DNA of 64,000 nucleotides from a virus (taxonomy: Duplodnaviria > Heunggongvirae > Uroviricota > Caudoviricetes). The translations under genes and the position numbers were made by a program. The notes under the pieces are model-generated. The model was not told the origin of the DNA, ran no database searches, and worked only from the letters and a program-made list of their open reading frames with translations. The stretch lies in IMG/VR virus record IMGVR_UViG_3300037245_002365. One strand, given 5' to 3'. Numbering within the stretch: the first letter of the stretch is position 1; the number at the start of each line of letters is the position of its first letter. Below are positions 30,038 through 61,541 of the stretch, one piece after another.

Positions 30038-30065
30038 TATAGAAGAAGTATTAGAGGATAAAAAA

Positions 30066-30863
30066 ATGAGTGATAAAACGTCTCTCGGAGACAGAATGAA
30101 AATATATGAGAAACTTAACGCTACAGCGTTGATGCCTCATTTACCAGTAATAGCAAGGATTGATGGCCGGGCATTCCATACATTTTGTAGGGGCTTTGAT
30201 AAGCCTTTCGATATGAGAATGGTAGCAGCCATGCAATCAACAACGGAATTTATATTTAATGAATTCAATCCTATGTTTGCACATACATTCAGTGATGAAA
30301 TAAACCTAATGTGGTATTATCCAGAACCTGAACAACAAATGGTGTTTGGTGGAAAAATACAAAAACTTTGCTCAGTGCTAGCTTCAGCAGCTACACTTAG
30401 GTTCAATGAAGCAAAACTGGAACTCTTTGAGGGTAATCCAATTGCTGAAAGAAAAGCAATGTTTGATTGTAGAGTATGGAATGTACCTACAACAGATGAA
30501 GTAGCTAACTACTTTGTATGGCGTGAACAAGATGCAGCTCGTAATAGTTTACAGATGCTTTCAAGAGCACATTATTCACACCATGAGTTGGAAGGCAAGA
30601 AACAGGCTGACATGCACGAGATGTTATATAAGAAAGCCATTAATTGGAATGAACAGCCGATGATATTAAAAGCCGGTAGTTATTACAGACCGAACCCAAC
30701 AACTCCTGCGGAACTTGTAAAATCTCGATATCCAATGCTTGATGGAAGCTTACTGAACCTGCCATATAGTACGGATGGTAAAACTCCACATGAGCAACGA
30801 CTAAGATTCATATTTAGACCAGAAGAAAGGGAATACGATGGCACAGAAAAGAAAGCTGAGTGA
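30066..30863 (+). CDS. Thg1-like protein (tRNA-His guanylyltransferase family, 3'-5' nucleotide addition)
   Basis: VIARIDGRAFHTFCRGFDKPFDMRMVAAMQ...FAHTFSDEINLMWYY matches the Thg1 core VVVRLDGRNFHRF...YGQSDEYSFVF. Start placed at the ATG after a GAGGA RBS. The ORF track shows an upstream extension. Confidence 0.6.
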   Translation: MSDKTSLGDRMKIYEKLNATALMPHLPVIARIDGRAFHTFCRGFDKPFDMRMVAAMQSTTEFIFNEFNPMFAHTFSDEINLMWYYPEPEQQMVFGGKIQKLCSVLASAATLRFNEAKLELFEGNPIAERKAMFDCRVWNVPTTDEVANYFVWREQDAARNSLQMLSRAHYSHHELEGKKQADMHEMLYKKAINWNEQPMILKAGSYYRPNPTTPAELVKSRYPMLDGSLLNLPYSTDGKTPHEQRLRFIFRPEEREYDGTEKKAE

Positions 30864-31107: not shown

Positions 31108-31389
31108 ATGAATATTTTTCCGTGGATACTATTAATTATTCTTAGTGTCCTAATAATCAAATTTGGAAAAAGGGCTTTAAATTGGTTAGGCGACTTCATC
31201 GATAATACTAATGCTCCTTCGTCAGAAATGACGGATAGAGTTAAAGTAGCAAAGGGTGAAGTATCTGATCTCAAGGTTGAAAAGAAAACTCTTTCAACTG
31301 AAGTAAGTTCGGCAGGAAAGGCTAGTGATCTAAAGGCGGACATTGGCAAACTCAAAGGTAAACTAAAAACAAAGGAAGATAATGATTAA
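31108..31389 (+). CDS. Single-pass membrane coiled-coil protein, partner of the SPFH protein
   Basis: N-terminal TM helix, then a charged coiled coil. Its stop overlaps the next start. Confidence 0.55.
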   Translation: MNIFPWILLIILSVLIIKFGKRALNWLGDFIDNTNAPSSEMTDRVKVAKGEVSDLKVEKKTLSTEVSSAGKASDLKADIGKLKGKLKTKEDND

Positions 31390-32638
31390 AACATTATTGA
31401 CTAGATTCGCACCAGCATTGCTCCTAGTAGCAATTGTTGTTCTGGCTGTGTTCAGCCAACAGATTCTTGAAACAAACTCACGCGGCCAGTATCAAATTAA
31501 GCAGGCGGCTGTCACCGGTGACATGAGCGCACGCTTAGAACCCGGTATGTACGGCCAATGGTTTGGTGATATTGACACTTGGAACAAAGCGGAGACGTTT
31601 TATTTCACAGCTGACTTTGACGGCGAAGGTGATACTAAAGCAGATAAATCAATTGAAGTACGCTTCAATGATGGTTCTATCGCTAAAATATCCGGCACAG
31701 CTCGAATCACATTACCATACACTGAAGCTGAAGCAGTCGCTTTGGTTGCTGATCATGGTTATAAAAGTTACAAGGAACTAGCACAGAAATTGGTTCTTCC
31801 TTCGGTTCGAAATGCATTACGATCCAGCGCTAACTTGATGTCAGTACGTGAAAGTTATTCTGAAAACAGACTTGATTTTATTAACTGGTCCCGAGATCAG
31901 CTGCAAAACGGTTTGTATAATACAGAAGAGATTACGAAGAAAGTTACTGATATATTAAGTGGTGAACAGGTTACCAGGACATTCAAAACGATACAGAAAG
32001 ATGCCAGCGGTACTCCAGTTTATCAGTTCAATCCTTTTGATGGTAAGGGAATAACAATTTCAAACTTTGAAATTAAGTCATTCAATTACTCTCCGAAGGT
32101 ACGTGAGCAGATTGCGGCTCAACAAGCAGCTTTGATGGCTGTTCAGACCGCACGAGCATTAGCGAAAGAAGCTGAGCAAAAAGCACTTACTACAGAGGCT
32201 GAGGGAAAAGCTGAGGTTATGCGCGTTAAATATGAAAACGAGCAAAACAAAATCGCGGCTATCATCAAAGGCGAACAAAGGCGTGATGTTGCTGAGTTAG
32301 CAAAAGCTGAAGCCGGGTTCACCAAGGAAGCTCAAATCCTAATCGCAGACGGTGAGGCTTATCGTAAGAGAGAAGTCATGGCCGCCGATGGTGCATTGGA
32401 TAAAAAGCTAGCAGCATTAGTTACAATTAATGGAGCTTTTGCCAAGGCTGTTGAAAATCATGTTGGTGCTTGGGTACCATCCATCGTATTTGGTGGGGGT
32501 GGATCAGGAGGATCGTCTGATTTGACTAATGGTATGAACGGCGTTCAAAACATGGTTGATTTGTTGACTCTTGCAGCAGCAAAAAACCTGTCTCTTGATA
32601 TGACGCTACCAACAACGTCGAAAACGGCTGTTCAATAG
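31382..32638 (+). CDS. SPFH/band-7 (stomatin/prohibitin/HflKC-like) membrane protein
   Basis: N-terminal TM helix, then an SPFH-like domain. Ala/Glu/Lys-rich coiled coil (EAEQKALTTEAEGKAEV...AKAEAGF) and a Gly-rich C-terminus. Confidence 0.55.
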   Translation: MIKTLLTRFAPALLLVAIVVLAVFSQQILETNSRGQYQIKQAAVTGDMSARLEPGMYGQWFGDIDTWNKAETFYFTADFDGEGDTKADKSIEVRFNDGSIAKISGTARITLPYTEAEAVALVADHGYKSYKELAQKLVLPSVRNALRSSANLMSVRESYSENRLDFINWSRDQLQNGLYNTEEITKKVTDILSGEQVTRTFKTIQKDASGTPVYQFNPFDGKGITISNFEIKSFNYSPKVREQIAAQQAALMAVQTARALAKEAEQKALTTEAEGKAEVMRVKYENEQNKIAAIIKGEQRRDVAELAKAEAGFTKEAQILIADGEAYRKREVMAADGALDKKLAALVTINGAFAKAVENHVGAWVPSIVFGGGGSGGSSDLTNGMNGVQNMVDLLTLAAAKNLSLDMTLPTTSKTAVQ

Positions 32639-33929: not shown

Positions 33930-34397
33930 ATGTTAAATGAATCAAACGTAATAAATAGCTTTAGAGGTAAATATTTCTTTCTAAGTAACTTTTACGTTGT
34001 GTCACTTACCATGGATGATGGCAAAGAATATGCAACATCCGAGCACGCTTATCAAGCGGCAAAAATGGAAAGTAAAAAAGACGCAGAGAAAGTTAGGTTA
34101 GCTGCTAGTCCGAGTGTAGCTAAAAAATTAGGAAATGAATTAACAGCCAAAGAAGGTTGGGATTTCATTAAAATCGATATGATGAAAGATATCGTCGAAG
34201 TAAAGTTTTTCCAAAATGTTGAGATATACAAGAAATTATTAGAAACAGGTAAGGCCCACTTAGTAGAGGGCAACACTTGGAAGGATGATTTCTGGGGCGT
34301 GTATCAAGGCGTTGGGGATAACCACCTCGGAAAAATTTTAATGGAAATAAGAGAAGAAGCAAGTGATTGGGATATAGCTATCCTAACAACTAAGTAA
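33930..34397 (+). CDS. NADAR (YbiA/DUF1768) domain protein
   Basis: FRGKYFFLSNFY ... SEHAYQAAK ... DFWG ... LGKILMEIR match NADAR signature motifs (F-x-FYS-x-FSNF, EHYFQA-K, WG). Confidence 0.6.
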   Translation: MLNESNVINSFRGKYFFLSNFYVVSLTMDDGKEYATSEHAYQAAKMESKKDAEKVRLAASPSVAKKLGNELTAKEGWDFIKIDMMKDIVEVKFFQNVEIYKKLLETGKAHLVEGNTWKDDFWGVYQGVGDNHLGKILMEIREEASDWDIAILTTK

Positions 34398-39204: not shown

Positions 39205-39864
39205 ATGTTTCGCAAGTATGAGAAAACATATCGCATACTTGTTCCTCAGATTAACGTCAAAGGAAAGCACTTCCTTTCCAAAGACGAGATGCGCGCATTA
39301 CTTGGCGGGGAGGTAACCCTTCTCGAAAAGTTAGACGGCGCTAACACTGGCATTATCCCAACGCGAGACTGGTTCCGTTTGCAAAAACGGGGCTCTCTCG
39401 TGGATGCCAGTGAACATCATCAATTTAATTTTTTTAAAGCATGGTCTGAGCAGAACTATGAAAAGCTGATCGATATACCAAAACATTATAGGGTGTATGG
39501 GGAGCTTATGCGCTGTGTACACACAGTAAACTATAATAAACTTCCAGATTGGTTTGTAGTATTTGGTATCTTTGATACTAAATTAATGCAATACTTAAGC
39601 TGGAATAATGTGATAGCACTTTGTGATGGATGGGGACTTAGTACAGTACCAACCATAGCAAATGGTGTTCACGTAGAAAAAATGGACCTTTTCAACCTAA
39701 TACCAGATGTATCAGGTTATGGGGACGAGGCTGCGGAGGGCCTTGTAGTATGGAACTACAGAAGACAGATGAGAGGCAAACTTGTAAGAGAAGAATTTGT
39801 TAAACATATGGATAACTCCGGTCACTGGATGACCAAGGAGTTGAAATTTAACTCTTTGATTTAG
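39205..39864 (+). CDS. Rnl2-like RNA ligase, nucleotidyltransferase domain only
   Basis: N-terminus MFRKYEKTY matches the T4 Rnl2 N-terminus MFKKYSSLENHY. Motif I is EKLDGAN (KxDGxN). At 219 aa it lacks a C-terminal domain. Confidence 0.55.
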   Translation: MFRKYEKTYRILVPQINVKGKHFLSKDEMRALLGGEVTLLEKLDGANTGIIPTRDWFRLQKRGSLVDASEHHQFNFFKAWSEQNYEKLIDIPKHYRVYGELMRCVHTVNYNKLPDWFVVFGIFDTKLMQYLSWNNVIALCDGWGLSTVPTIANGVHVEKMDLFNLIPDVSGYGDEAAEGLVVWNYRRQMRGKLVREEFVKHMDNSGHWMTKELKFNSLI

Positions 39865-39888
39865 TTTAAAATTTAACCAAACAAAATT

Positions 39889-40632
39889 TTGGAATTATTA
39901 ATAAATGCTGGCGATTTTGAGTTACTCACACCGCCAGACGAATTGCGGGCACAAATGCGCCGTATGGAAAGAGCAGGTAGAACCTGCTATCAGTCAGAGA
40001 TCGGTGAAATCACCGATGTCACTGCTGAAAACTTTGTAAGAAAAATATTGCATCAGTTCCACCATGAGAGTGTAATTGAACATAGCTCTTTAACAGTGAA
40101 ATTTACAGGTGTATGCCGTGGATTCACTCATGAATTAGTACGTCACAGATTAGCGTCTTTCTCTCAGGAAAGCACACGATATGTAGACTATGCTAAATCT
40201 GAAACTAAGGGTGCTGCAGACATAGTAGACCTTGATAGATTTGAATTACGTTGTGTTGCACCACCACACAGAGATGTGGATGAAAAATTTCAAGTCCATG
40301 ACAATTTCACTGGGCATGTAATGAAGTCTTACAGAGATATGCTTGAAGAAATGGAAGCCAACTACAAAGCTTTACGTAAAGCTGGTTGGGTACCACAAGA
40401 TGCAAGGCAAATACTGCCAATAGCAACTGAAAGTGATATTGTTGTTACGGCTAACTGGAGAGAATGGAGACACATTCTTACAATGAGAACGGGTAAACCT
40501 GCTCATTGGGAAATTAGGCGTGTAATGTGCAACTTACTGCAAGTATTACAGGAAACTATCCCAGTAATATTTGAAGATTTTGTAGAAGCAGGTACTAGCG
40601 ATGGTGTTCTATATTATTCAAGATTCAAGTAA
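39889..40632 (+). CDS. thyX: Flavin-dependent thymidylate synthase ThyX
   Basis: ELVRHRLASFSQESTRY is the ThyX RHRxxSxxxxSxRY signature. The start appears to be TTG. Confidence 0.75.
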   Translation: MELLINAGDFELLTPPDELRAQMRRMERAGRTCYQSEIGEITDVTAENFVRKILHQFHHESVIEHSSLTVKFTGVCRGFTHELVRHRLASFSQESTRYVDYAKSETKGAADIVDLDRFELRCVAPPHRDVDEKFQVHDNFTGHVMKSYRDMLEEMEANYKALRKAGWVPQDARQILPIATESDIVVTANWREWRHILTMRTGKPAHWEIRRVMCNLLQVLQETIPVIFEDFVEAGTSDGVLYYSRFK

Positions 40633-40676
40633 ACACCTTTGTCGCCTTAAAAATTAACCACAAATATGAGTAATAT

Positions 40677-41222
40677 ATGACTGATAAGAAAATTTACTAC
40701 ACAGGAATCGGATCACGCTCAACACCCGCAGCTTATATGCTCTTGATGGAGAATTTTGCTGAAAGGCTATCAAGGCTAGATATAATTTTAAGATCTGGTG
40801 GTGCAGATGGAGCAGACAGTGCATTTGAAAAGGGAGTAATAGGAGATTTAAAAGAAATCTTTCTCCCATGGCCAAATTTTAATCATAATAAATCTGATTT
40901 ATGTAATATAAGCGTAGAAGCATACAAACTTGCTTGGGAACATCACCCACATTGGGCAGCCTTAAAGCAATCAGTTAGAAAATTACATGCAAGAAACGTT
41001 CATCAGATTTTAGGTAAGGACTTGAAGACTCCGTCTTCAGCAGTTATTTGCTGGACACAAGATGGTGCAAACACAGCTAAAGATTGTACTAGATTAACTG
41101 GCGGTACAGGGATGGCTATCAGAATAGCACATGAGCACAAAGTGCCTGTCTATAATATAAAGAACAGAGAAGACTACTCTAAATGCATAGAGTGGATTAC
41201 TAATTTAGGGGACCAAAAATGA
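40677..41222 (+). CDS. DprA/Smf-like SLOG-family Rossmann-fold protein
   Basis: YYTGIGSRSTP...ILRSGGADGADSAFEKGV matches the DprA pattern vGsR-x-P...SG-A-GiD-aAH. Confidence 0.5.
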   Translation: MTDKKIYYTGIGSRSTPAAYMLLMENFAERLSRLDIILRSGGADGADSAFEKGVIGDLKEIFLPWPNFNHNKSDLCNISVEAYKLAWEHHPHWAALKQSVRKLHARNVHQILGKDLKTPSSAVICWTQDGANTAKDCTRLTGGTGMAIRIAHEHKVPVYNIKNREDYSKCIEWITNLGDQK

Positions 41223-41404
41223 TTTCAAAGATTAAAAAAGTTATTCTAATATATGACTGTGAATATTTAGAAGAAGAGGTAGAAGTTGAAATTACTGATA
41301 ACATTGTATTGTCAGAGTATACTCGTGGATTAGATGTGATTGCTGAAGTGTATTGTTCGTGTATGCGTTTACACAAATTCATACTAAAAAAAGAAGAACG
41401 ATGA
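41219..41404 (+). CDS. Hypothetical small protein
   Basis: 61-aa ORF coupled to its neighbours. Confidence 0.4.
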   Translation: MISKIKKVILIYDCEYLEEEVEVEITDNIVLSEYTRGLDVIAEVYCSCMRLHKFILKKEER

Positions 41405-42564
41405 AATTTACACACGACAAATTACAAGAGTATATAGATAAGAAAATGCTGATGCGACAGAAGCATCCAGTATTCGATTACTATATCTATAACTATACTC
41501 CAGAGGTACAATTTAAGAAACTCTGGAACCCTACGCTTATGGCATGTAGAGGCCTAATTTTGGATGGAGACAGCAATGTTATTGCTCGACCATTTACTAA
41601 GTTCTTTAATTACTCTGAATTAGGACCATCTGCAAGAGGAACACTCAATAGACGGGTTAGTGAAGTCTACGAAAAAATGGACGGTAGCTTGGGTATAATG
41701 TACCCCCACCCTGGTTTTGAAGAGTTTAGTATTGCAAGCAGAGGAAGTTTTACCTCTCCGCAGGCACTATTCGGTACTGATTTATTGAATAATAAATACA
41801 GGAAGTGGACTAAACATTTTAGATATGAACCAGAAAATTTCCCAGAGAACAGTATTTTTCTAGCAGAAAAAACAGTAATTTTTGAGATAATTTATCCCGA
41901 AAACAGAATAGTAGTTAACTATGGCGATATGGAAGATATGGTTTATCTAGGTGTTGTTGAAAACAGTACCGGAAACGATCTTTATCCAGTAATAGAAAAA
42001 GACTGGCCCTTTCCTGTTGTTCGTAGATACACAGAATTAGAAAACCTCACTATGGATGAATTGGTAGAGCGTGTTAACAACCACGAAGATTACGGTAATA
42101 ACCGTGAAGGTTACGTGGTAAAATTTAAGAACGGCTCTCGAACCAAATTGAAATATCCTGATTATATCAGGTTACATCGAATAATGACTGATATGAGTGA
42201 GAAACGAATTCTTGAAGCAGTGATCCAAGGACCGCTGTCTGAAGAATTCTTGGATGGTGTTCCAGATGAATGCTATGATTGGCTGAAAGATGTAGAGAAA
42301 CGATTCAGAGCTGAATACGAAACAATCAAATTATCTTGCCAGCTATTCTATCAACAGTGCCAATTAAAACAGATAGGGGACGCACCAAAGTTCACCAGAA
42401 AAGATTGGGCATTAGCATTTCTTAAGACGCCTTACCCAGCAGTGCTATTTAATATGCTAGATGGAAATGATTATTCACCAGCGATTTGGGCCAAAATTGA
42501 GCCTAAACCCGGAAAACAAACCTTTCAGACGTCTGGATATAATAGAACTAAAGAAAAGACTTGA
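41401..42564 (+). CDS. rnlA: RNA ligase 1 (T4 Rnl1 family)
   Basis: LMACRGLILDGDSNVIARPFTKFFN ... EKMDGSLG ... IASRGSFTSPQA aligns with T4 Rnl1 [27 protein letters not shown] ... KEDGSL ... KSKGSIKSEQA. Start placed at the ATGA overlap. Confidence 0.7.
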   Translation: MKFTHDKLQEYIDKKMLMRQKHPVFDYYIYNYTPEVQFKKLWNPTLMACRGLILDGDSNVIARPFTKFFNYSELGPSARGTLNRRVSEVYEKMDGSLGIMYPHPGFEEFSIASRGSFTSPQALFGTDLLNNKYRKWTKHFRYEPENFPENSIFLAEKTVIFEIIYPENRIVVNYGDMEDMVYLGVVENSTGNDLYPVIEKDWPFPVVRRYTELENLTMDELVERVNNHEDYGNNREGYVVKFKNGSRTKLKYPDYIRLHRIMTDMSEKRILEAVIQGPLSEEFLDGVPDECYDWLKDVEKRFRAEYETIKLSCQLFYQQCQLKQIGDAPKFTRKDWALAFLKTPYPAVLFNMLDGNDYSPAIWAKIEPKPGKQTFQTSGYNRTKEKT

Positions 42565-42707
42565 CAAAATACTTAATATATAGCTATATTAAAATATGGT
42601 AACAAATGAACATAAATACGCCTCAGCGAATTTAACGCAAGATTTTAGTGGGAGAGACCCACTAGGAGTTTTGGTTACCTAAGTTTATACTTATTATTTT
42701 GTTAAAC

Positions 42708-42741
42708 AACCCCGGTAACCTCAAAAGTTCCGGGGTTTTTG
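42708..42741 (+). terminator. Rho-independent terminator just before the first tRNA
   Basis: Stem AACCCCGG/CCGGGGTT followed by a T run. Confidence 0.65.
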
Positions 42742-42763
42742 ATTTTTGACATCGCGTATTATT

Positions 42764-42837
42764 GTCTCAGTAGCTCAGTCTGGTAGAGCGCCGTCCCTCC
42801 AAGTCGGATGTCGCAGGTTCAAATCCTGTCTGGGACT
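42764..42837 (+). tRNA. tRNA, most likely Gly (anticodon TCC); an alternative reading of the loop gives Trp (CCA)
   Basis: Hand-folded. Acceptor GTCTCAG/CTGGGAC (one G-U), D-arm GCTC/GAGC, T-arm GCAGG-TTCAAAT-CCTGT. Anticodon stem CCGTC/GTCGG has one T-T mismatch. Loop is CCTCCAA. Confidence 0.65.
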
Positions 42838-42863
42838 CACAATTAGGAAAACCAAATATTAAT

Positions 42864-43346
42864 ATGATTGATTTACAACAGTTTGTAAGATTTATACAAA
42901 GCGGCGGTGCTGCATATGATGGCTATGCTTATGGCTATGGTCGTGAACAACGTGGCCAAGCCATATATGAAATAAGAATCCATCCAGAAGATTTTGAAAC
43001 GCTTCGAGAGCAGCTTGCTAGAGCTTACGGAGGTATGCCTATGTATCAACATGACCCTTATGGACGTCAAGATACCTACAGACAAATTATGGGCCAAAAC
43101 TTCCAAATAGATAATAATATAGCTATCGGAAGTATAGGTGTTTTTTTTCGACCGCCACAACAAATAGAATTGAGTGGTCCAACAGAAAAACCGAAGGAAC
43201 CACCAGTATCTATGAAAGAGGTTTGTGATAGTATGATACAGACTTTAACAGAAGAAACAAAAGACATGAACTACCTGAAAACGACAGTAGCTGATGTACA
43301 GCCTATAAGAGGAAGGATGCCGAACGATGAAGAGAGGGTATTTTGA
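42864..43346 (+). CDS. Hypothetical protein
   Basis: 160-aa ORF directly after the tRNA. Confidence 0.55.
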   Translation: MIDLQQFVRFIQSGGAAYDGYAYGYGREQRGQAIYEIRIHPEDFETLREQLARAYGGMPMYQHDPYGRQDTYRQIMGQNFQIDNNIAIGSIGVFFRPPQQIELSGPTEKPKEPPVSMKEVCDSMIQTLTEETKDMNYLKTTVADVQPIRGRMPNDEERVF

Positions 43347-43764
43347 AATAGGGATTATAAATGGCAAAGATAAGGCTAATATAGGTACTCTATGGCGCTC
43401 TGCATATCAATTAGGGGCATCGGGTATTTTCACAATAGGTGCTAGATACTCACACCAAAAAAGCGACACAACAAAAGCTATAAAACACATACCATTAAGA
43501 CAGTACGAGACGTTTGAAGAATTTATGAAGATCAAACCGAAGGAAGCACGCTTAATCTGTGTAGAAACGGGAGGCTCACCACTAAAAAGGTTTGTACATC
43601 CTACTTCTGCAATATACTTATTAGGCGCGGAAGATACAGGTATACCAGAGTATATACAAGTCGAGAGCGACTACATTATTTCACTACAATCTGTAAATAT
43701 ATCATCATATAATGTATCTGTAGCAGGAACCTTAGTTATGTATGACAGGATGTTTAATAAATAA
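43327..43764 (+). CDS. SpoU/TrmH-family RNA 2'-O-methyltransferase
   Basis: IGIINGKDKANIGTLWRSAYQLGASGIF matches the SPOUT motif (PEN-GN-GTL-RSA-AFGA) and is followed by LLGAEDTGI. Confidence 0.6.
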   Translation: MKRGYFEIGIINGKDKANIGTLWRSAYQLGASGIFTIGARYSHQKSDTTKAIKHIPLRQYETFEEFMKIKPKEARLICVETGGSPLKRFVHPTSAIYLLGAEDTGIPEYIQVESDYIISLQSVNISSYNVSVAGTLVMYDRMFNK

Positions 43765-43776
43765 CCAAAAATTAAA

Positions 43777-44211
43777 ATGATTAAAGATCATTATGTTGCA
43801 GGCTTTGTCTTTGACAAAGAACTAGAACATATCTATTTAATTAGAAAAAACAGACCAAGTTGGCAGGAAGGCTTGCTAAATGGAATCGGCGGACACATAG
43901 AGGCTAATGAGTCTCCACTATCCGCAGTGGTTAGAGAGTTTATAGAAGAAACTGCCACTAAAGTAAATGCAGAAGATTGGCATCATATTGCTACCATATC
44001 CAGCAAACCAGATAAAACTTCTGGATTCCCATGGGAATGCTGGTTTTTCATGGCAGTTACTGGACAGACTCCAGTAACCAATACAGATGAAGAAGTTGTT
44101 AAAGTTAGATTAACTGACTTACATGATGGGGACGTAATACCAAATTTAAACTGGTTAATACCTTTAGCACTGCATGGTGAGAAAAGTTGGCCAGTGATAG
44201 CAAATGAGTAA
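43777..44211 (+). CDS. Nudix hydrolase
   Basis: Nudix box GGHIEANESPLSAVVREFIEETA (Gx5Ex7REUxEExGU). Confidence 0.7.
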   Translation: MIKDHYVAGFVFDKELEHIYLIRKNRPSWQEGLLNGIGGHIEANESPLSAVVREFIEETATKVNAEDWHHIATISSKPDKTSGFPWECWFFMAVTGQTPVTNTDEEVVKVRLTDLHDGDVIPNLNWLIPLALHGEKSWPVIANE

Positions 44212-44221
44212 AGGAACATAA

Positions 44222-44653
44222 ATGATATTTTCAGCAGGTGTGATGATCAGAAGAACATCCGATAATAACGTTTTAATATGTCGACCCCTCATGGGTAAGA
44301 CAGCACGCTCTTTTCCAAAGGGAGAAGTTGATGACGGAGAAACTTACGCCCAAACAGCAAAAAGAGAAACTTTTGAAGAAACAAATATAGACCTTCCATT
44401 AGAATCTCTAAAGTATATGGGTCAGTTTAAATATGTTAAGAGAAATAAAACTATCGTTCTATTCTCTGCAACAATAGATGACAAGGATTTACCGGATGAG
44501 CTTATTTGCTCATCAACGTTCCAGCTAAAGGGCAAAGGCCCTCAGTTACCAGAAGTAGATAAATTTGAATGGGTAACCATTTCAGATGCTATCGAACTTG
44601 TGCATGAAGCACAATCAAGGGTCGTTAAGAATTACGTGACAGAAAAAATGTAA
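44222..44653 (+). CDS. Nudix hydrolase (second copy)
   Basis: Nudix box GEVDDGETYAQTAKRETFEETNI. Confidence 0.7.
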   Translation: MIFSAGVMIRRTSDNNVLICRPLMGKTARSFPKGEVDDGETYAQTAKRETFEETNIDLPLESLKYMGQFKYVKRNKTIVLFSATIDDKDLPDELICSSTFQLKGKGPQLPEVDKFEWVTISDAIELVHEAQSRVVKNYVTEKM

Positions 44654-44661
44654 GGAACCGA

Positions 44662-44961
44662 ATGAAAGTTGTATATGATACTGCAGGTATGGAAGAAATG
44701 ATAGACAGTGCAGGTAAAAGGGTATTACACCATCCGAAAGGAAGCTGTAAAAACCAAGAAGCTGGCTGTCCAGTACATAACCCATCAGAGCACAAATTAA
44801 ATGAGGCACCCTTGTTTTTTGCTGATGAGTTATTGTTTCCAGTATTCTTTAGAGTATGCGAACATGGACATAGACATCCAGATCCAGACTCTTTACGTTA
44901 TTATAGAGATATGGGATATTCATTAAATGACAACCACGAATGTGATGGTTGTTGCACATAA
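44662..44961 (+). CDS. His/Cys-rich small protein (metal-binding?)
   Basis: HHPKGSCKNQEAGCPVHNPSEH...CEHGHRH...CDGCC. Confidence 0.5.
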   Translation: MKVVYDTAGMEEMIDSAGKRVLHHPKGSCKNQEAGCPVHNPSEHKLNEAPLFFADELLFPVFFRVCEHGHRHPDPDSLRYYRDMGYSLNDNHECDGCCT

Positions 44962-45062
44962 AAATTATGGAGGGAGTGTAAGGATGTCTAAGTACGTACT
45001 AGAGATACCTTACTACGAGAGGATGACTCAACTCCCTCCGTCACTTTAAAAAAGGAAATTAA

Positions 45063-45335
45063 ATGAGAGATATAAAAGAAGTTATTAGCAGAATGCTTGA
45101 AGTAATTAATGAGCAATCAGAAATAAGCGTTTACATTGAATCGCTTATTGCCGGACTGGAAGATATTCGACTTAGGGTTGATAAAAACCAATCCAACGAC
45201 TTGGCTTGGGGAGGTATAGGACATTATCTTTCAACTTATATGCTCAACTCAAACGATCCAGAATCACCGGAGTGGACAAGAGAGGTTGCCGCATTATTTG
45301 TTGGCAAAACCTACATAGCTCCAGTAACGGAATAG
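45063..45335 (+). CDS. Hypothetical protein
   Basis: 90-aa ORF with a GGAAAT RBS. Confidence 0.5.
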   Translation: MRDIKEVISRMLEVINEQSEISVYIESLIAGLEDIRLRVDKNQSNDLAWGGIGHYLSTYMLNSNDPESPEWTREVAALFVGKTYIAPVTE

Positions 45336-45337
45336 AA

Positions 45338-45577
45338 ATGCTTGACAACAAAAACTTCACAACAATAGTCTATTATGCAGAAGACATAAAAAAGTGGGAA
45401 TATAAACTTACTACCGGCAAACTGATCCTACAAGATGGACGATGGTTTGTTGAAGGTGGGTTTACTATTTCTGGTGGAGCTACTACAGCTGCAAAAGCTT
45501 ATCGCTCAGCAAGAATAAGTTTAGGGCTCAGTAAGTTATATAATTTGCTTATATGGCTTTTGGACAAATACAGATAG
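45338..45577 (+). CDS. Hypothetical protein
   Basis: Starts at the ATG right after the previous stop. The upstream extension shown in the ORF track (from 45206) is not trusted. Confidence 0.45.
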   Translation: MLDNKNFTTIVYYAEDIKKWEYKLTTGKLILQDGRWFVEGGFTISGGATTAAKAYRSARISLGLSKLYNLLIWLLDKYR

Positions 45578-46056
45578 ATAAGAAAGATATGGACGAACAA
45601 AACACAAGATCGTACGATAGCACGAAAGACACCGTTGATCATATAAACAATGTACAAGAGTACCTTCTTTTGATGGCTACTAAATTGCTTGATCGAGGAT
45701 TAAATCATGATAGGTCAAAATTAGATGACCCTGAATTGGAAATATTCAATGAGTTTACTCCAAAGTTAAAGCAATTAACATTCGATAGTGATGAATATAA
45801 GAAATGTCGTGAAGAAATGGCACCAGCGTTAAACCACCATTATGCAAAGAACAGGCATCACCCTGAACACTTTGCTGAAGGGATAAATGATATGACGTTG
45901 ATTGACATTTTAGAGATGCTGTGTGACTGGAAAGCAGCCACACTTCGCCAAAATGATGGCAATCTTAGAAAGAGTCTTGATTCGGCTTCAAAACGATTTA
46001 ATATAGACACACAACTTAAGAAAATACTGTTAAATAGTATTGGGTTGTTTGACTAA
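45553..46056 (+). CDS. HD-domain phosphohydrolase
   Basis: H...NHDRSKL...HHYAKNRHHPEH...D gives the H/HD/H/H/D metal-ligand pattern. Confidence 0.5.
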   Translation: MAFGQIQIDKKDMDEQNTRSYDSTKDTVDHINNVQEYLLLMATKLLDRGLNHDRSKLDDPELEIFNEFTPKLKQLTFDSDEYKKCREEMAPALNHHYAKNRHHPEHFAEGINDMTLIDILEMLCDWKAATLRQNDGNLRKSLDSASKRFNIDTQLKKILLNSIGLFD

Positions 46057-46063
46057 GGTTTGA

Positions 46064-46104
46064 GAAGCAAGCAAAGTTTATTAATTATTTTGCTTGCTTT
46101 TCGA
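46064..46104 (+). terminator. Rho-independent terminator
   Basis: GAAGCAAGCAAAG...TTTGCTTGCTTTT. It overlaps the -35 region of the HNH promoter. Confidence 0.6.
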
Positions 46105-46122
46105 TTCACAATTGTTTATATT
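46094..46122 (+). promoter_or_regulatory. sigma70-like promoter of an HNH gene (TTGCTT-17-TATATT). The ATG lies 6 nt after the -10, so the mRNA is probably leaderless.
   Basis: The same architecture sits upstream of all four HNH paralogs. Confidence 0.55.
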
Positions 46123-46127
46123 TAAGT

Positions 46128-46709
46128 ATGAAAGTTAAATGTAAATACTGTGAAATAGAATTCGACAAGAGACCGGATCAAGTTAAAAAATACAAAAATC
46201 ATTTTTGTAGTAGATCACACGCCGCGTCTTATAATAATAAGATTCACCCAAAATGTAGTTTCGACGGTATTAAAAATGTCTACTGTTTAGATTGTGAAAA
46301 ACCACTTAAGCATAAAACTCACCCTAGAAAAAAATATTGCAATCAGCAGTGCCAAATGAGTTTTCAACACAAAGAGTACATCAGAAGATGGCTCATTGGG
46401 GAAGAAACGGGTAATAGGTGTAAGACTGAGGTATCGATTTCGAAACATGTACGTAGATGGATTTTTGAAAAATATGACAACAAATGTTGTAAATGTGGTT
46501 GGGATAAGATTAACACAACTACGAATAAAATACCACTACAAGTAAGTCATATTGATGGGAACCCTTATAATACAATACCAGAAAATTTAGAACTTATATG
46601 CCCAAATTGCCATTCTTTAACTCCTACGTTTGGAGGACTGAATACAGGTAACGGCAGAAAATTAGAGAGCAATAAGGAAAAATATAGAGCATCGGGCCAC
46701 TGGGTGTAG
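46128..46709 (+). CDS. HNH homing endonuclease (free-standing)
   Basis: Cys-rich CxxC pairs. HNH core ...HIDGNPYNT...NLELICPNCH. The last ~8 codons overlap tRNA-Asp. Confidence 0.7.
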   Translation: MKVKCKYCEIEFDKRPDQVKKYKNHFCSRSHAASYNNKIHPKCSFDGIKNVYCLDCEKPLKHKTHPRKKYCNQQCQMSFQHKEYIRRWLIGEETGNRCKTEVSISKHVRRWIFEKYDNKCCKCGWDKINTTTNKIPLQVSHIDGNPYNTIPENLELICPNCHSLTPTFGGLNTGNGRKLESNKEKYRASGHWV

Positions 46710-46761
46710 CCACCTCCCTGTCACGGAGGATATCAGGCCGGTTCGAACCCGGTATGCTCTG
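46686..46761 (+). tRNA. tRNA-Asp (GTC)
   Basis: Perfect acceptor AGAGCAT/ATGCTCT. Anticodon stem CCTCC/GGAGG with loop CTGTCAC. T-arm GCCGG-TTCGAAC-CCGGT. Short 3-bp D-stem and a 7-nt variable loop. Confidence 0.65.
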
Positions 46762-46803
46762 CGGGGTTGGCCGGTTACCCGTTGAATCGAAAAACGGCAT
46801 TTT

Positions 46804-46878
46804 GGGGATATAGTTTAAATGGGAAAACATTGCCCTTGCAAGGCAAAATTTCGAGTTCGAGCCTCGATTTCTCCACCA
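46804..46878 (+). tRNA. tRNA-Ala (TGC), with encoded CCA
   Basis: D-arm GTTT/AAAC. Anticodon stem TTGCC/GGCAA with loop CTTGCAA. T-arm TCGAG-TTCGAGC-CTCGA. Acceptor GGGGATA/TTTCTCC has one U-U mismatch. Confidence 0.65.
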
Positions 46879-46914
46879 AATTCAATAAAAACAATAATTT
46901 ATGAAGGAGATACT

Positions 46915-47091
46915 ATGTTTGTAAATTTAAATGCAATGACAGATGAAGCGTATCAAGCCTTCATGGAAAAGTATCAAGAAAAAGTATTCGGAATTATCAT
47001 TGAAGCAGAATTTGAAATGGTTGAGAAGAAAGAAACATTTAGAGATAAGATAGGAAAATTGGTAGAAACAATAAAATCAATTAGAAAGTAA
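46915..47091 (+). CDS. Small hypothetical protein
   Basis: AAGGAG RBS 7 nt upstream. The longer ORF starting at 46819 overlaps tRNA-Ala. Confidence 0.5.
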   Translation: MFVNLNAMTDEAYQAFMEKYQEKVFGIIIEAEFEMVEKKETFRDKIGKLVETIKSIRK

Positions 47092-47747
47092 TGAAGATTG
47101 TAGCGATTGCAGATACACATATGCTCCATAATGACTTGATGGTCCCCGAGGGTGACCTACTTATCCACGCAGGAGACATGTGTACATATGGTAGAGAAAA
47201 TGAAGCTAGAGAAACTGCCAAATGGTGGAAATCCTTACCCCACCCTCATAAAATCTATGTTCCAGGAAATCATGATGTATCAATATATGAAAATCGTAGT
47301 TTAAGAGAATTATATGAGGATGAAAATAGCCACGTCTTAATTGACGAGGCTCTAGAAATTGATGGGATTAAGTTTTGGGGTAGCCCATGGACGCCAGAGT
47401 TTTGTGGATGGGCATTTATGCTACAAAGGGGCGGAGACGTACTAGCAAACAATTGGGCTGCTATTCCTGATGACACTGACGTGTTAATTACCCATGGCCC
47501 ACGCTTTGGGTATGGAGATAGAAACGAAGAAAATCTTCCAGTTGGGTGTGAAGCACTAGCTTGGCGGCTAGAGCAAATGCCTGATTTGAAGTACCATATC
47601 TTCGGACACATCCATACAGATTATGGTATAAGAAGATTCAATAACACCTCTGTTATAAACGCTTCTATACATGAGGGTACGTGGAAACACCACGACTTTA
47701 CCCCACCTATTGTTTTTGAGTATGGAGAAGAACCCCATTATGGGTAA
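47091..47747 (+). CDS. Calcineurin-like metallophosphoesterase
   Basis: Motifs IADTH, GDMCTYG, GNHD, GH-H. Confidence 0.7.
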   Translation: MKIVAIADTHMLHNDLMVPEGDLLIHAGDMCTYGRENEARETAKWWKSLPHPHKIYVPGNHDVSIYENRSLRELYEDENSHVLIDEALEIDGIKFWGSPWTPEFCGWAFMLQRGGDVLANNWAAIPDDTDVLITHGPRFGYGDRNEENLPVGCEALAWRLEQMPDLKYHIFGHIHTDYGIRRFNNTSVINASIHEGTWKHHDFTPPIVFEYGEEPHYG

Positions 47748-48722: not shown

Positions 48723-49217
48723 ATGAAAAATTTAGATTTTACAAAGTTAGAAGTAAACTGTGATATGGACGGTGTACTAACAAACTTCGCTGGTTCATTT
48801 TTGAAGATATCAAATGACATTGAATGCGACGTTTATGAAAACACACAAGGCTCAGAGAAATTTTGGGAACTTATAGACAAAGAAGGGCTCGACTGGTGGG
48901 CTAATATGCCTTGGATGTCGGATGGAAAACTGCTTTGGTACTATATAGAAAATCTGAGACCCCATATTCTCTCTGCACCCGCAAAGAGATTGCCACAGAG
49001 TAGAGAAGGAAAAAAGATTTGGGTAAAACGTGAGTTAGGTAAAGTACCAGTTAGACTGGGAAAAGCCAAAGACAAACAACAATTCGCTCACGCGAATTGC
49101 ATACTTATAGATGATATGCAACGTAACATCAATCAGTGGCGCGATTCCGGAGGAGTTGGGATACTCCATACTTCAGCAGAAGATACCATAAGACAATTAA
49201 AAGCTTTGGGCCTTTAA
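48723..49217 (+). CDS. HAD-superfamily 5'(3')-nucleotidase-like protein
   Basis: HAD motif I, CDMDGVLTNF. Confidence 0.5.
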   Translation: MKNLDFTKLEVNCDMDGVLTNFAGSFLKISNDIECDVYENTQGSEKFWELIDKEGLDWWANMPWMSDGKLLWYYIENLRPHILSAPAKRLPQSREGKKIWVKRELGKVPVRLGKAKDKQQFAHANCILIDDMQRNINQWRDSGGVGILHTSAEDTIRQLKALGL

Positions 49218-49337: not shown

Positions 49338-49832
49338 ATGAAAGTTAAATGTAAACATTGTGAAATAGAATTTGATAAAAAACCTAATCAAATAAAAAAA
49401 GATAAGAATAATTTTTGCTGCAGATCTCATGCTGCAATTTATAATAATAAGATGTACCAGAAGAGGGCACCAACTAAGTGGCGTTGTATGGATTGTGATA
49501 AAAAAGTAAGCCACGGATCAAAACGCTGCCAAGGCTGTAAACGAATAGATGCTCTTAAAATTTATAATTCTCACACTATAGAAGAAAAAGTATATAAAAA
49601 AGGCGATGCTTCTTTAAAATTTGTATATATACGCAAGCATGCGGGAATAGTTCTTGAGTTAGAAAATAGAAAAAAGAAGTGTGAGGCGTGTGAATGGGAT
49701 AAACATGTCCATGTAGCACATATAAAAGCATTAAGCAGTTTTGATCTAACAACAAAAATTGGTGTAGTAAATGCACCAGAAAATTTAAAGTATCTATGTC
49801 CCAATTGTCATTGGGAATTTGATCATAATTAG
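49338..49832 (+). CDS. HNH homing endonuclease (paralog of 46128)
   Basis: First ~50 nt about 90% identical to the 46128 gene (MKVKCKHCEIEFDK). HNH core CPNCHWEFDHN. Confidence 0.7.
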   Translation: MKVKCKHCEIEFDKKPNQIKKDKNNFCCRSHAAIYNNKMYQKRAPTKWRCMDCDKKVSHGSKRCQGCKRIDALKIYNSHTIEEKVYKKGDASLKFVYIRKHAGIVLELENRKKKCEACEWDKHVHVAHIKALSSFDLTTKIGVVNAPENLKYLCPNCHWEFDHN

Positions 49833-49835
49833 TAT

Positions 49836-49910
49836 GCTCGGTTCGTCTAGACAGGACTAGGACACCGGGTTTTCATCCCGGCAACACGGGATCGTAGCCC
49901 GTACCGAGTA
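49836..49910 (+). tRNA. tRNA-Glu (TTC)
   Basis: Acceptor GCTCGGT/ACCGAGT. Anticodon stem CCGGG/CCCGG with loop TTTTCAT. T-arm ACGGG-ATCGTAG-CCCGT. D-loop is long at 11 nt. Confidence 0.6.
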
Positions 49911-49932
49911 CAAATTCCAACCAACAAGTAAT

Positions 49933-53457: not shown

Positions 53458-53973
53458 ATGAATACAAAAATATGTACAAAATGTACCAAAGAAAAGTCTC
53501 TAGAAGACTTCAACTTTAAAAATAAAACAAAAGGTATTAAACAGGCACAGTGTAAAGAATGTCAATCCATATACTTTAAAAAACACTATAGCAAAAACGT
53601 AGAAAAATACTGTAAGCGAGCCAGAACCTCTAATCCAGCAGCAAAAAAAAGAAATAGAGAGTTTATTATATCCTATTTGCTAGAACACTCCTGTGTAGAT
53701 TGTGAAGAAACTGATATTGTTGTATTGGATTTTGATCACGTTATTGGTGAAAAGCGTGAAACGGTTTCTACTATGGCAAGATCGCCTTATAGTATTAAAT
53801 CCATAAAAGAAGAAATAGGTAAATGTGAGATTCGTTGTGCAAATTGTCACCGAAGAAGACATTCCAAAGAAAATGGTTTTTACAAAGAAGGCGTCGTAGC
53901 TCCAAAGGTAGAGCGAAAGTCTGAAAAACTTTGCGTTGGTGGTTCGAATCCGCCCGATGCCACAAACCAATAA
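53458..53973 (+). CDS. HNH homing endonuclease. Its last ~28 codons read through tRNA-Phe.
   Basis: CTKCTKEK...CKECQ...DHVIGEKRET...CANCHRRRH. Confidence 0.7.
   Translation: MNTKICTKCTKEKSLEDFNFKNKTKGIKQAQCKECQSIYFKKHYSKNVEKYCKRARTSNPAAKKRNREFIISYLLEHSCVDCEETDIVVLDFDHVIGEKRETVSTMARSPYSIKSIKEEIGKCEIRCANCHRRRHSKENGFYKEGVVAPKVERKSEKLCVGGSNPPDATNQ
53890..53962 (+). tRNA. tRNA-Phe (GAA), lying inside the 3' end of the HNH ORF
   Basis: Acceptor GGCGTCG/CGATGCC. D-arm GCTC/GAGC. Anticodon stem AAAGT/ACTTT with loop CTGAAAA. T-arm GGTGG-TTCGAAT-CCGCC. Confidence 0.8.
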
Positions 53974-54877: not shown

Positions 54878-54906
54878 TTGACAAATGAGCTATATATGTC
54901 TATATT
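54878..54906 (+). promoter_or_regulatory. Consensus sigma70 promoter TTGACA-17-TATATT for an HNH gene
   Basis: Seen directly. ATG 5 nt after the -10. Confidence 0.65.
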
Positions 54907-54911
54907 TAAGT

Positions 54912-55469
54912 ATGGATAAAAAAATACTTGAAATATATATAGAGCAGGGTATGTCAACATATCAAATTGCTAAAGAAGAAAATTGCGGACAAACCAACGT
55001 AAGGCATTGGCTGAATAAATATGATCTTTCTACTAAATATGTTAGAAAGAAAACTATTAGACCGATTCATATTTGTAAAAACTGCGACAAAACATTAGAT
55101 CACAATATTAGAAGTCAAAGGGTTTACTGCTCTACAAATTGTCATCAAAAATATATGGCAAAAGAAAGAGATAAGCGTATAGAAACTGCTGGGGGTTTGC
55201 CAGATAATATGGCTATTAGAACTCTTAAAACCTATATGTTAAAAAAACGCGGAGTTGTCTGTCAAATTTGTGAACTAACAGAATGGAATAATAAACCAAT
55301 ACCTCTAGTTTTAGATCATATAAATGGAGATTCAACTAATAGTAGTTTTGAAAATTTACGATTAGTTTGTGGAAATTGTGATATGCAATTACCAACATAT
55401 AAGGGTAAAAATGCAGGAAACGGAAGACATAGTCGAAGACAACGATATAAAGACGGAAAATCTTATTAA
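54912..55469 (+). CDS. HNH homing endonuclease (inserted beside tRNA-Thr)
   Basis: MDKKILE... (ATG follows the conserved TATATTTAAGT). CKNC...CSTNCHQKY...DHINGDSTN...CGNCD. Confidence 0.7.
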   Translation: MDKKILEIYIEQGMSTYQIAKEENCGQTNVRHWLNKYDLSTKYVRKKTIRPIHICKNCDKTLDHNIRSQRVYCSTNCHQKYMAKERDKRIETAGGLPDNMAIRTLKTYMLKKRGVVCQICELTEWNNKPIPLVLDHINGDSTNSSFENLRLVCGNCDMQLPTYKGKNAGNGRHSRRQRYKDGKSY

Positions 55470-56328: not shown

Positions 56329-56538
56329 ATGATATTTGACATGCAGGAATGGATGTACGAGTGGGTGGAAGAACACAAAGACAAACAAGATGATGGAACC
56401 ATCAAAGTAAGCATCTTCGGAGAAGACGCTGTAATATTTGATGACGGGGAAGATGCAGATGACTTCCTATGGAATTTAGCACCAGATGAATACCATGAGT
56501 ATATGTCTGGTTATGGAGAGGATTTAAAAGATGAGTGA
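56329..56538 (+). CDS. Acidic small protein
   Basis: 69-aa ORF with a GGAGAT RBS. Confidence 0.45.
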   Translation: MIFDMQEWMYEWVEEHKDKQDDGTIKVSIFGEDAVIFDDGEDADDFLWNLAPDEYHEYMSGYGEDLKDE

Positions 56539-56839
56539 AGAAGAAAAAGAAATGACGACAGATGAGTTTTCAGAAATCGTTAAGGAAGGTATAACACTAG
56601 TAGATTTTTATGCTGATTGGTGTGGACCTTGTAAACAGATTGCACCAATATTAGAAGAACTTACTGATGTTAGAGTTCTAAAAGTTAATGTAGATGAGCA
56701 CAAAGATGTGACAACACTGCACGGGGTACGTAGTATTCCAACAGTATTTTTATATAAAGACGGTATAGTAGTTAAGTCACTTTTGGGTGCAAACTCAAAA
56801 GAAACCTACCAAAAAGCAATTGATGCATTAATCGAATAA
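56531..56839 (+). CDS. trx: Thioredoxin
   Basis: WCGPC active site, about 100 aa. Confidence 0.8.
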   Translation: MSEEEKEMTTDEFSEIVKEGITLVDFYADWCGPCKQIAPILEELTDVRVLKVNVDEHKDVTTLHGVRSIPTVFLYKDGIVVKSLLGANSKETYQKAIDALIE

Positions 56840-56843
56840 TGTT

Positions 56844-57098: not shown

Positions 57099-57103
57099 AA
57101 TTC

Positions 57104-57169: not shown

Positions 57170-57175
57170 AAGATA

Positions 57176-57249: not shown

Positions 57250-57255
57250 CATTAT

Positions 57256-57729: not shown

Positions 57730-57731
57730 TC

Positions 57732-61523: not shown

Positions 61524-61541
61524 AAAGCAGAAGGGGTTGCC

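Follow-up and report, generated by a model that had tools for sequence, protein, structure and literature searches.

RNA ligases, a Thg1-like gene and nucleotide-processing enzymes within the tRNA array of an uncultivated jumbo phage

Host nucleases that cut tRNAs form a major class of anti-phage defence, and phages answer them with spare tRNAs, ligases and end-healing enzymes. T4 Pnkp and Rnl1, for example, heal and seal tRNAs cut by the PrrC anticodon nuclease. A minority of phage Rnl1 genes lack the near-obligatory adjacent kinase, which raises the question of which breaks these ligases repair. One such gene lies in the window analysed here, a stretch of 64,000 nucleotides (nt) of Caudoviricetes DNA (IMG/VR record IMGVR_UViG_3300037245_002365). 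A first-pass annotation had read the interval 39205-47747 as a tRNA repair and modification toolkit, with two RNA ligases, a SpoU methyltransferase, a calcineurin-like phosphoesterase and an HD hydrolase interleaved with tRNA genes. We prefer to read the locus, with a probability of roughly 55%, as an accessory island combining counter-defence with nucleotide metabolism in a jumbo phage, its tRNA array being mixed with three kinds of gene. On our best reading these are an RNA-end-joining core (Rnl1, a minimal Rnl2/Rnl5-like ligase and a Thg1-like 3′-5′ polymerase), enzymes of nucleotides, ADP-ribose or cyclic phosphates (two Nudix hydrolases and SLOG, NADAR, MPPED2-like and DUF5662 proteins), and the ThyX and NT5C-like HAD genes of routine nucleotide metabolism together with homing HNH endonucleases.

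The window (G+C 37.7%, nearly all genes on the + strand) is part of a 228,091-bp JGI metagenome contig (3300043172 Ga0484852_0000003), and the source is an uncultivated jumbo phage with a contig of at least 228 kb. Readable sequence comprised 84 kb of this contig, namely the window and 10 kb on either side. A second contig (L002) is 100% identical to the window, and a relative (L087) is an independent 84-kb contig with the same gene order. No nucleotide match to the 8.5-kb interval was found among 50,697 phage records, nor any cultured relative. The affinities of several genes point to a Flavobacteriia-type host; a chromosomal SpoU family, a phosphoesterase like those of Flavobacterium phages and the G+C content together hint at Bacteroidota.

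The larger ligase (41401-42564, + strand, 387 amino acids (aa)) belongs to the Rnl1 family of ATP-dependent RNA ligases. It matches PF09511 (E = 9e-19, 68.6 bits against a cut-off of 28.3) and, over residues 8-373, PHROG 562 (E = 1.5e-69). The T4 Rnl1 structure 2c5u is also matched (E = 6e-18), with R50, K67/F69, K92 (KMDG), E162, E236 and K249/K251 in register with the catalytic residues of T4, which we take to be those identified by Shuman-laboratory mutagenesis. The motif set is therefore intact, from the motif I lysine (KxDG) through the motif III and IV glutamates to the motif V lysines. The T4 Rnl1 alignment does not extend past about residue 296, and thus the T4 C-terminal tRNA-specificity domain is not demonstrably common to the phage protein, whose C-terminal region is shared with actinophage homologues. 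The T4 RnlA equivalog TIGR02308 scored 81.7 bits over residues 11-276 alone, below its cut-off of 242.

The smaller ligase (39205-39864, + strand, 219 aa) is a minimal Rnl2/Rnl5-like RNA-ligase nucleotidyltransferase without an accessory domain (PF09414, E = 2e-24, 86.9 bits against a cut-off of 27). It belongs to a family of 217 metagenomic homologues of about 220 aa (48-68% identity), many on contigs of 177-481 kb, in which K42 (EKxDGAN), E100 (YGE), E178-G179 and K192 are invariant. Its AF2 model is a single domain (pLDDT 91), for which Foldseek returned the nucleotidyltransferase domains of Naegleria Rnl5 (2e-8) and T4 Rnl2 (8e-8), then other RNA ligases, with DNA ligases ranking far weaker. 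TM scores normalised to the target were 0.42-0.46, the model spanning only the nucleotidyltransferase part of targets of 335-340 aa. "Rnl2-like" is a fair label, albeit for a bare catalytic core. Both ligases are where the first-pass annotation had placed them and both, their motifs intact, are of RNA-ligase type.

A Thg1-like 3′-5′ nucleotidyltransferase, predicted to add to or repair tRNA 5′ ends, is encoded about 8 kb upstream of the ligases, outside the interval first noted (29955-30863, + strand; PF04446, E = 1.6e-28, 99.7 bits against a cut-off of 29.2; PHROG 4717, E = 3.5e-76), and forms part of the RNA-repair set. In a 481-kb phage contig the distance between a Thg1 gene and a small-ligase homologue is 1.5 kb. 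In two unrelated huge-phage contigs the small-ligase family adjoins genes for Thg1, RlaP (the RNA-ligase-associated polymerase-beta family) and NT5C-type HAD proteins, a neighbourhood that supports an RNA-repair role for the small ligase and Thg1. The NT5C-type genes adjoining small-ligase homologues are in contigs L171 and L172. The window itself encodes a HAD-family protein resembling 5′(3′)-deoxyribonucleotidases (48723-49217, + strand; PHROG 2643, E = 9e-24; weak Pfam NT5C match, E = 6e-4).

As first described, these genes are interleaved with phage tRNAs. ARAGORN predicted 12 tRNA genes in the window, between 42.7 and 57.3 kb, and five more lie just beyond it, giving at least 17. The three inside the interval are tRNA-Gly(UCC) (42764-42838, + strand) and the pair tRNA-Asp(GUC) and tRNA-Ala(UGC) (46686-46878, + strand), the last of which Rfam confirms. 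Two ARAGORN predictions, tRNA-Asp (46686-46762) and tRNA-Glu (49836-49911), fall below the Rfam tRNA gathering score; a weak tRNA-like element at 57104-57169 was seen by Rfam only, and the Rfam search returned nothing besides tRNAs. The tRNA-His (57256-57331) carries a G directly before position 1 and has its CCA end encoded, so that G-1 addition by the Thg1-like enzyme may not be needed.

What sets this locus apart is the kinase. For comparison we used 80 IMG/VR loci with Rnl1 homologues of 32-43% identity and 10-kb flanks, making 82 fetched loci with this phage's own two (L001 and L002), and clustered the Rnl1 proteins at 70% identity. In 54 of the 82, Rnl1 is closely preceded by a P-loop open reading frame (ORF) of 127-145 aa, most often no more than a few hundred bases away; all 54 are viral, and L001 and L002 are without it. 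Among the 17 evaluable clusters, 14 have a kinase within 4 kb of Rnl1. A representative of these small kinases is a Pfam AAA_33 protein, and a hidden Markov model (HMM) of 46 of them recovered the positive control, T4 Pnkp, at E = 3.6e-6. In agreement with the first-pass annotation, no P-loop kinase was found in the window by Pfam on all larger ORFs, by a Walker-A scan or with this HMM. That annotation had left room for a kinase elsewhere in the genome; over the 84 of 228 kb searched, nothing matched T4 Pnkp or the HMM, and the only P-loop proteins are an AAA+ ATPase and an AAA_28 protein. The latter (176 aa, L169:18819-19349, about 6.4 kb past the window end) was considered as a polynucleotide kinase and rejected. 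It matches a thymidylate kinase PHROG (E = 8e-22) and nothing in a PDB search, and three viral loci with homologues of it (E = 1e-34), some 4.4 kb from Rnl1, have an AAA_33 kinase besides. Nor was there any match to the C-terminal domain of Pnkp, a HAD-type 3′-phosphatase/cyclic phosphodiesterase, the NT5C-like protein being the sole HAD. The nearest Rnl1 cluster (L003-L011) is likewise without a kinase; its ligase is instead accompanied, at distances of up to about 2 kb, by genes for a CCA-adding enzyme (PolyA_pol head domain), an HNH protein and a DUF5661 protein.

Clustering of the neighbours in the 82 loci revealed a metallophosphoesterase of about 220 aa in 37 and a cREC_REC protein ("cyclic-phosphate processing receiver") directly downstream of Rnl1 in 26; 8 loci have a further PF09414 ligase. 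A split module of kinase, phosphoesterase and ligase is therefore the norm around viral Rnl1, which supports the general idea, put forward in the first-pass annotation, of Rnl1 working with a calcineurin-like healing enzyme. The window holds neither the 127-145 aa AAA_33 kinase nor the 220-aa metallophosphoesterase, which resembles Aquifex aq_1665, nor a cREC_REC protein. An SPFH protein lies within 4 kb of Rnl1 in 10 of the 82 loci, all viral, and the window encodes an SPFH/Band-7 protein at 31382-32638.

The genes of the interval form two tight blocks. The first (39205-42564; gaps of at most 45 nt, or overlaps) runs from the small ligase through ThyX, SLOG and a 61-aa ORF to Rnl1, and the second (42864-44961; gaps of at most 12 nt, or overlaps) holds a 160-aa ORF (hyp160), SpoU, two Nudix genes and a 99-aa ORF. 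Between them lies a promoter-like site close to the sigma-70 consensus (42561-42590; TTGACA, an 18-nt spacer and TATATT, 11/12 matches) that starts at the Rnl1 stop codon, followed by a terminator-like hairpin (42643-42667) just upstream of tRNA-Gly. Save for this site the promoter scan was uninformative (43 sites against 39 expected). ThyX (39889-40632, + strand; PF02511, E = 4e-48) is a flavin-dependent thymidylate synthase. The SLOG/DprA-like Rossmannoid protein (40677-41222, + strand) matches PHROG 768 (E = 5.5e-60) and, weakly, Pfam DNA_processg_A (E = 0.0024), with no match in a PDB sequence search. The 61-aa ORF (41219-41404, + strand) is a called gene in the JGI record and overlaps SLOG and Rnl1 by 4 nt each. 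The Nudix hydrolases (43777-44211, + strand, PF00293, E = 1.5e-11; 44222-44653, + strand, PF00293, E = 3e-15, PHROG 1185, E = 2e-28) are preceded, well upstream of the ligases, by a NADAR domain protein of predicted ADP-ribose processing (33930-34397, + strand; PF08719, E = 1.8e-26). None of these named families featured in the first-pass annotation, nor did the Thg1-like gene or the HNH gene of the interval (46128-46709, + strand; PHROG 14736, E = 3e-16; weak Pfam HNH_3), whose 3′ end overlaps tRNA-Asp.

The order is conserved in L087, which reads NADAR, DUF3307, further genes, small ligase, SLOG, a short ORF, Rnl1 and tRNA-Gly, and then hyp, SpoU, Nudix, Nudix, hyp, tRNA-Asp, phosphoesterase, further genes and HAD. 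Protein identities are 52-89%, among them 68% for SLOG, again between the two ligases, 87% and 76% for the first and second Nudix hydrolases, 76% for NADAR, upstream of the cluster, and 78% for the phosphoesterase; a 58-aa ORF takes the place of the 61-aa one. ThyX, which in the window stands between the ligases, and DUF5662 are missing from L087 and are thus not core parts; ThyX is a nucleotide-metabolism gene outside the conserved module. The HNH gene at 46128-46709 is probably a mobile insertion, its homologue lying elsewhere in L087. Four HNH ORFs of the window run up to or into the 5′ part of a tRNA gene (this one at Asp, 49338-49832 at Glu, 53458-53973 at Phe and 54885-55469 at Thr), two with the stop codon inside the tRNA, an arrangement reminiscent of T4 and T5, whose tRNA regions contain homing endonucleases.

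The phosphoesterase (47091-47747, + strand, 218 aa) is a metallophosphoesterase as first proposed (PF00149, E = 2e-12), and more narrowly an MPPED2/239FB-like binuclear metallophosphodiesterase. PDB entry 3rl4 (mammalian MPPED2) matches at E = 1e-37, in two segments spanning residues 2-211, and the metal-site motifs are complete (DTH at 8, GD at 28, GNHD at 59, HGP (THGP) at 135 and GHIH at 172). The significant PDB matches were MPPED2 entries only, and no Pnkp chain appeared at E ≤ 1. MPPED2 and bacterial relatives such as Rv0805 are cyclic-nucleotide phosphodiesterases. Membership of the Rnl1-linked phosphoesterase family was considered and rejected, an HMM of that family giving E = 3e-3 only. 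Three other Rnl1 clusters do have MPPED2-like homologues no more than 10 kb from the ligase, directly downstream in L066; this locus also holds the canonical Rnl1-linked enzyme, and so the MPPED2-like one is not a substitute for it. The best cultured-phage matches are in Flavobacterium phages, where the gene sits in replication and nucleotide-metabolism contexts without RNA ligases. A role in RNA-end healing is possible, though the context gives no indication of it. The gene at 45553-46056 (+ strand), first labelled an HD hydrolase, encodes a DUF5662 protein (E = 4e-37), possibly an HD-like metal hydrolase; the HD label gains little from the searches, in which Pfam matched DUF5662 only, with no HD profile and no PDB sequence match. 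Its absence from L087 places it outside the conserved module.

These enzymes could shift the emphasis from RNA to signalling. The island might be mostly an anti-signalling and NAD/ADP-ribose counter-defence locus with the ligases as independent neighbours, in which the MPPED2-like and DUF5662 proteins would degrade cyclic (oligo)nucleotide immune signals while the Nudix, SLOG, NADAR, DUF4326 and isochorismatase-like proteins would process ADP-ribose derivatives. The kinship with cyclic-nucleotide phosphodiesterases fits, as do the NADAR protein and the DUF4326, DUF7831 and isochorismatase-like proteins encoded further along the window, and the literature predicts such roles, with one survey recording Nudix, NADAR and SLOG genes together (PMC9503650); DUF4326 has been tied to NAD/ADP-ribose conflict systems. 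However, all of these proteins lack known substrates, and the position of SLOG between the ligases, kept in two phages, hints at a link to the ligases. We regard this alternative as unlikely, although it is the best placed of those considered. The DUF4326 and DUF7831 genes lie with a thioredoxin gene at 56531-58840.

The methyltransferase gene (43327-43764, + strand) encodes a predicted SpoU/TrmH-class SPOUT RNA 2′-O-methyltransferase (PF00588, E = 9e-19, 68.4 bits against a cut-off of 29.7), bearing out the first-pass assignment. Its product, METHYLTRANSFERASE, comprises only the catalytic core (145 aa), carries each of the three SpoU motifs and has no RNA-binding extension; N18-R24, LGAED (E102) and S127-N129 are invariant among 35 homologues. 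The best PDB matches of its profile were the TARBP1 methyltransferase (7e-10), a TrmH-family protein (6e-9) and a Gm18 methyltransferase (2e-6), TARBP1/Trm3 and TrmH-type domains being preferred over RlmB and TrmL. The NCBIfam equivalogs (TrmH, TrmL, TrmJ and RlmB) all scored far below cut-off, for the phage protein and its bacterial homologues alike. It belongs with the SPOUT enzymes and is no relative of Hen1. It does not directly follow a tRNA, as had been stated; tRNA-Gly ends at 42838 and hyp160 (42864-43346, + strand) intervenes, overlapping the SpoU start by 20 nt; in L087, too, a copy of it (52% identity) precedes SpoU. Searches of Pfam, PHROG and NCBIfam with hyp160 returned nothing. 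It was considered as an equivalent of cREC, being of like size and downstream of Rnl1, and rejected for want of any profile match or similarity.

The SpoU family is large, with 1,745 metagenomic proteins, 153 IMG/VR contigs (in an alignment-based scan; a single-sequence scan gave none) and at least 596 bacterial genome loci, chiefly in Chloroflexota and Flavobacteriia, where the proteins are about 50% identical and their genes have unremarkable chromosomal surroundings. Its neighbours in 80 viral loci are largely unrelated to one another, falling into 839 clusters among 984 ORFs. Rnl1 occurs near SpoU in 2 of these 80 loci and a tRNA gene within 10 kb in 12 of 60, and a Pfam census of 149 neighbouring proteins yielded HNH, terminase, DnaB, DNA methylase and similar families, with RlaP once. 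One homologue lies 1.2 kb from a HAD_SAK_2 gene. The family is uncharacterised and widespread in bacteria and phages, and behaves as a mobile accessory gene without a general tie to RNA repair. On present evidence neither the SpoU enzyme nor the phosphodiesterase can be assigned to a sealing pathway.

It is against this background that the analogy with bacterial Pnkp/Hen1 systems, drawn in the first-pass annotation, has to be judged. In such an integrated pathway the phosphoesterase would open 2′,3′-cyclic phosphates, an unseen kinase would phosphorylate 5′-OH ends, Rnl1 or the small ligase would seal, and SpoU would protect the repaired or vulnerable nucleotide from recutting by 2′-O-methylation. 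The pairing of a phage Rnl1 with a calcineurin-like healing enzyme is right in general and common elsewhere, the MPPED2-like homologues near Rnl1 (above all in L066) point the same way, and here the genes lie within 8.5 kb on one strand in an order kept in L087. Moreover, 2′-O-methylation blocks transesterifying RNases as a matter of established chemistry, and the HAD_SAK_2 neighbour of one SpoU homologue is a "Swiss-army-knife" RNA-repair phosphatase. However, the phosphoesterase is of another subfamily than the Rnl1-linked one and in Flavobacterium phages keeps company with replication and nucleotide modules rather than ligases, the SpoU neighbours in viral loci are unrelated to RNA repair (RlaP 1/149, Rnl1 2/80), the methyltransferase is SPOUT and not Hen1-type, and the 84 kb yielded no kinase. 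The full heal, seal and methylate sequence is thus not borne out here, and we hold it to be improbable.

Slightly less probable again is a tRNA defence that dispenses with the kinase. The bacterial-derived minimal SPOUT enzyme would methylate tRNAs beforehand, or after sealing, against transesterifying anticodon nucleases, the ligase pair would reseal only the 5′-phosphate/3′-OH breaks of metal-dependent nucleases, and the MPPED2-like enzyme would clear cyclic-phosphate ends. If this doubtful proposal were true, the large family of 145-aa phage SpoU proteins (153 IMG/VR contigs; some 1,700 proteins in metagenomes) would constitute a novel anti-defence class of RNA-armouring enzymes. Least likely of all is that SpoU, the Thg1-like enzyme and perhaps the ligases mature or modify the phage tRNA set with no response to damage, for while the phage has at least 17 tRNAs, could have borrowed a host-type modification enzyme (SpoU being chromosomal in Flavobacteriia and Chloroflexota at about 50% identity) and Thg1 enzymes are established to add G-1 to tRNA-His, its own tRNA-His already encodes G-1 and the CCA end, ATP-dependent ligases have no role in bacterial tRNA maturation, and only 12 of 60 SpoU viral contigs have a tRNA gene within 10 kb.

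We return to the composite island with an RNA-end-joining core. Two RNA-type ligases with intact motifs in a tRNA array, a Thg1-like gene nearby and agreement with published jumbo-phage repair sets (PMC7824862) speak for tRNA repair; the phosphoesterase of another subfamily, a methyltransferase that is not of Hen1 type, and a supposed HD protein and ThyX that are not core speak against extending it to the whole interval. Several results weigh against the composite reading. With no kinase in 84 kb, against 14 of 17 Rnl1 clusters that have one, the classical pathway is incomplete here. The 219-aa ligase lacks the accessory domain that nick sealing requires (C-terminal in Rnl2, an N-terminal OB in Rnl5), and its sealing ability is thus uncertain. 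No recurrent link of SpoU to a ligase or a tRNA was found in other viral contigs, and outside this lineage no recurrent association with a ligase was seen for SpoU, the phosphoesterase or DUF5662. Lastly, a gene-order match with a single relative may reflect common descent rather than functional coupling. Family membership, active-site motifs, gene order and its conservation in one relative are direct observations; from them we infer substrates, cooperation among the genes and a role against host tRNA nucleases as follows. The phage would keep translation going through its own tRNAs and the resealing of broken ones. Because no polynucleotide kinase lies within 84 kb, the ligases may seal 5′-phosphate/3′-OH breaks directly, or may rely on a kinase from elsewhere in the genome or from the host. 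The SPOUT enzyme would 2′-O-methylate some RNA position, and the phosphodiesterase would most likely hydrolyse cyclic nucleotide phosphodiesters.

Taken together, the earlier observation was largely right, and its interpretation holds for the ligases and the general theme, but it goes too far on the phosphoesterase, the methyltransferase and the "HD" protein. On our reading the locus is one more phage kit of known type for sustaining translation while the host attacks, comes from an uncultivated jumbo phage, and is odd mainly for the missing adjacent kinase. Neither the kinase-less Rnl1 nor the compact, widespread phage SpoU family yet gives evidence of a new mechanism.

Two further regions of the window were noted. 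Tandem paralogues of roughly 105-160 aa occupy 3660-7096, 10170-11229, 11945-12352 and 13707-14389. They share an N-terminal 'QLF(F/L)KD..KL....EL' and a C-terminal 'W(I/L)TLKE', with at least 9 copies by strict motif search and about 14 by eye, and have no Pfam matches. A row of three genes at 59952-63242, resembling a TerY-P-type triad, encodes a vWA protein, a PP2C phosphatase and a protein of 566 aa, the last similar by eye to protein kinases though without a Pfam match; the isochorismatase-like protein (59140-59940) is encoded just upstream.

How the island relates to known systems can be stated gene by gene. Like Pnkp/Hen1 of the Clostridium thermocellum type, it encodes a calcineurin-fold phosphoesterase, a ligase and a 2′-O-methyltransferase together. 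However, it has no fused kinase-phosphoesterase-ligase and no Hen1-like partner for ligase activation, its phosphoesterase is a stand-alone protein of 218 aa that is MPPED2-like and not lambda-phosphatase-like, and its methyltransferase has the SPOUT knot fold (PF00588) instead of the Rossmann fold of Hen1. Among SpoU-TrmH enzymes (TrmH, Trm3 and TARBP1 for Gm18; RlmB; TrmL) the methyltransferase shares all three motifs and fits the TARBP1/TrmH family best, but it consists of the 145-aa core only and lies below every NCBIfam equivalog cut-off. The phosphoesterase resembles MPPED2/239FB and Rv0805-type class III cyclic-nucleotide phosphodiesterases across its entire catalytic domain (E = 1e-37) and keeps every metal ligand, the GHIH histidine included; it differs in lacking the N-terminal extension of MPPED2 and has relatives in Flavobacterium phages.

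The viral kinase-metallophosphoesterase-Rnl1-cREC modules of IMG/VR share their anchor with the island, an Rnl1 homologue at 32-43% identity, and in 8 and 10 loci respectively a second PF09414 ligase next to Rnl1 and an SPFH protein in the vicinity, but not the kinase, the aq_1665-like phosphoesterase or cREC_REC (54, 37 and 26 of the fetched loci). With T4 Pnkp (pseT) and Rnl1 (rnlA), the island has in common phage-borne tRNAs and an Rnl1-family ligase with aligned catalytic residues, while it differs in having no Pnkp homologue or P-loop polynucleotide kinase in 84 kb and in a similarity to Rnl1 that stops at about residue 296, short of the TIGR02308 cut-off. In T4 itself 1.4 kb separate rnlA from pseT, with nrdB, denA and cd around them, and the island ligases likewise stand among nucleotide-metabolism genes; RNA repair genes inside nucleotide metabolism are thus the classical picture. 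Iyer et al. 2021 (PMC7824862, section 3.4.9) described jumbo-phage RNA-repair sets in which tRNAs accompany Rnl1, Rnl2 and RtcB ligases, kinases, HAD, calcineurin-like or HD-like phosphatases, 2H, cREC, RlaP, a CCA-adding enzyme and, sporadically, Thg1, the kinases and phosphoesterases being generally congruent with ATP-dependent RNA ligases. A 2022 survey (PMC9503650) reports Nudix, NADAR and SLOG genes in one another's company, in early regions that also encode RNA repair. The SPOUT methyltransferase is not among the sets of either survey, and the 84 kb differ from those of Iyer et al. in the kinase not seen; in the tRNA array, the Rnl1 and Rnl2-type ligases, Thg1, phosphatases and Nudix, NADAR and SLOG genes nearby they are alike, and on our best reading the RNA-sealing core, with its two ligases, Thg1-like enzyme and tRNAs, matches these kits.

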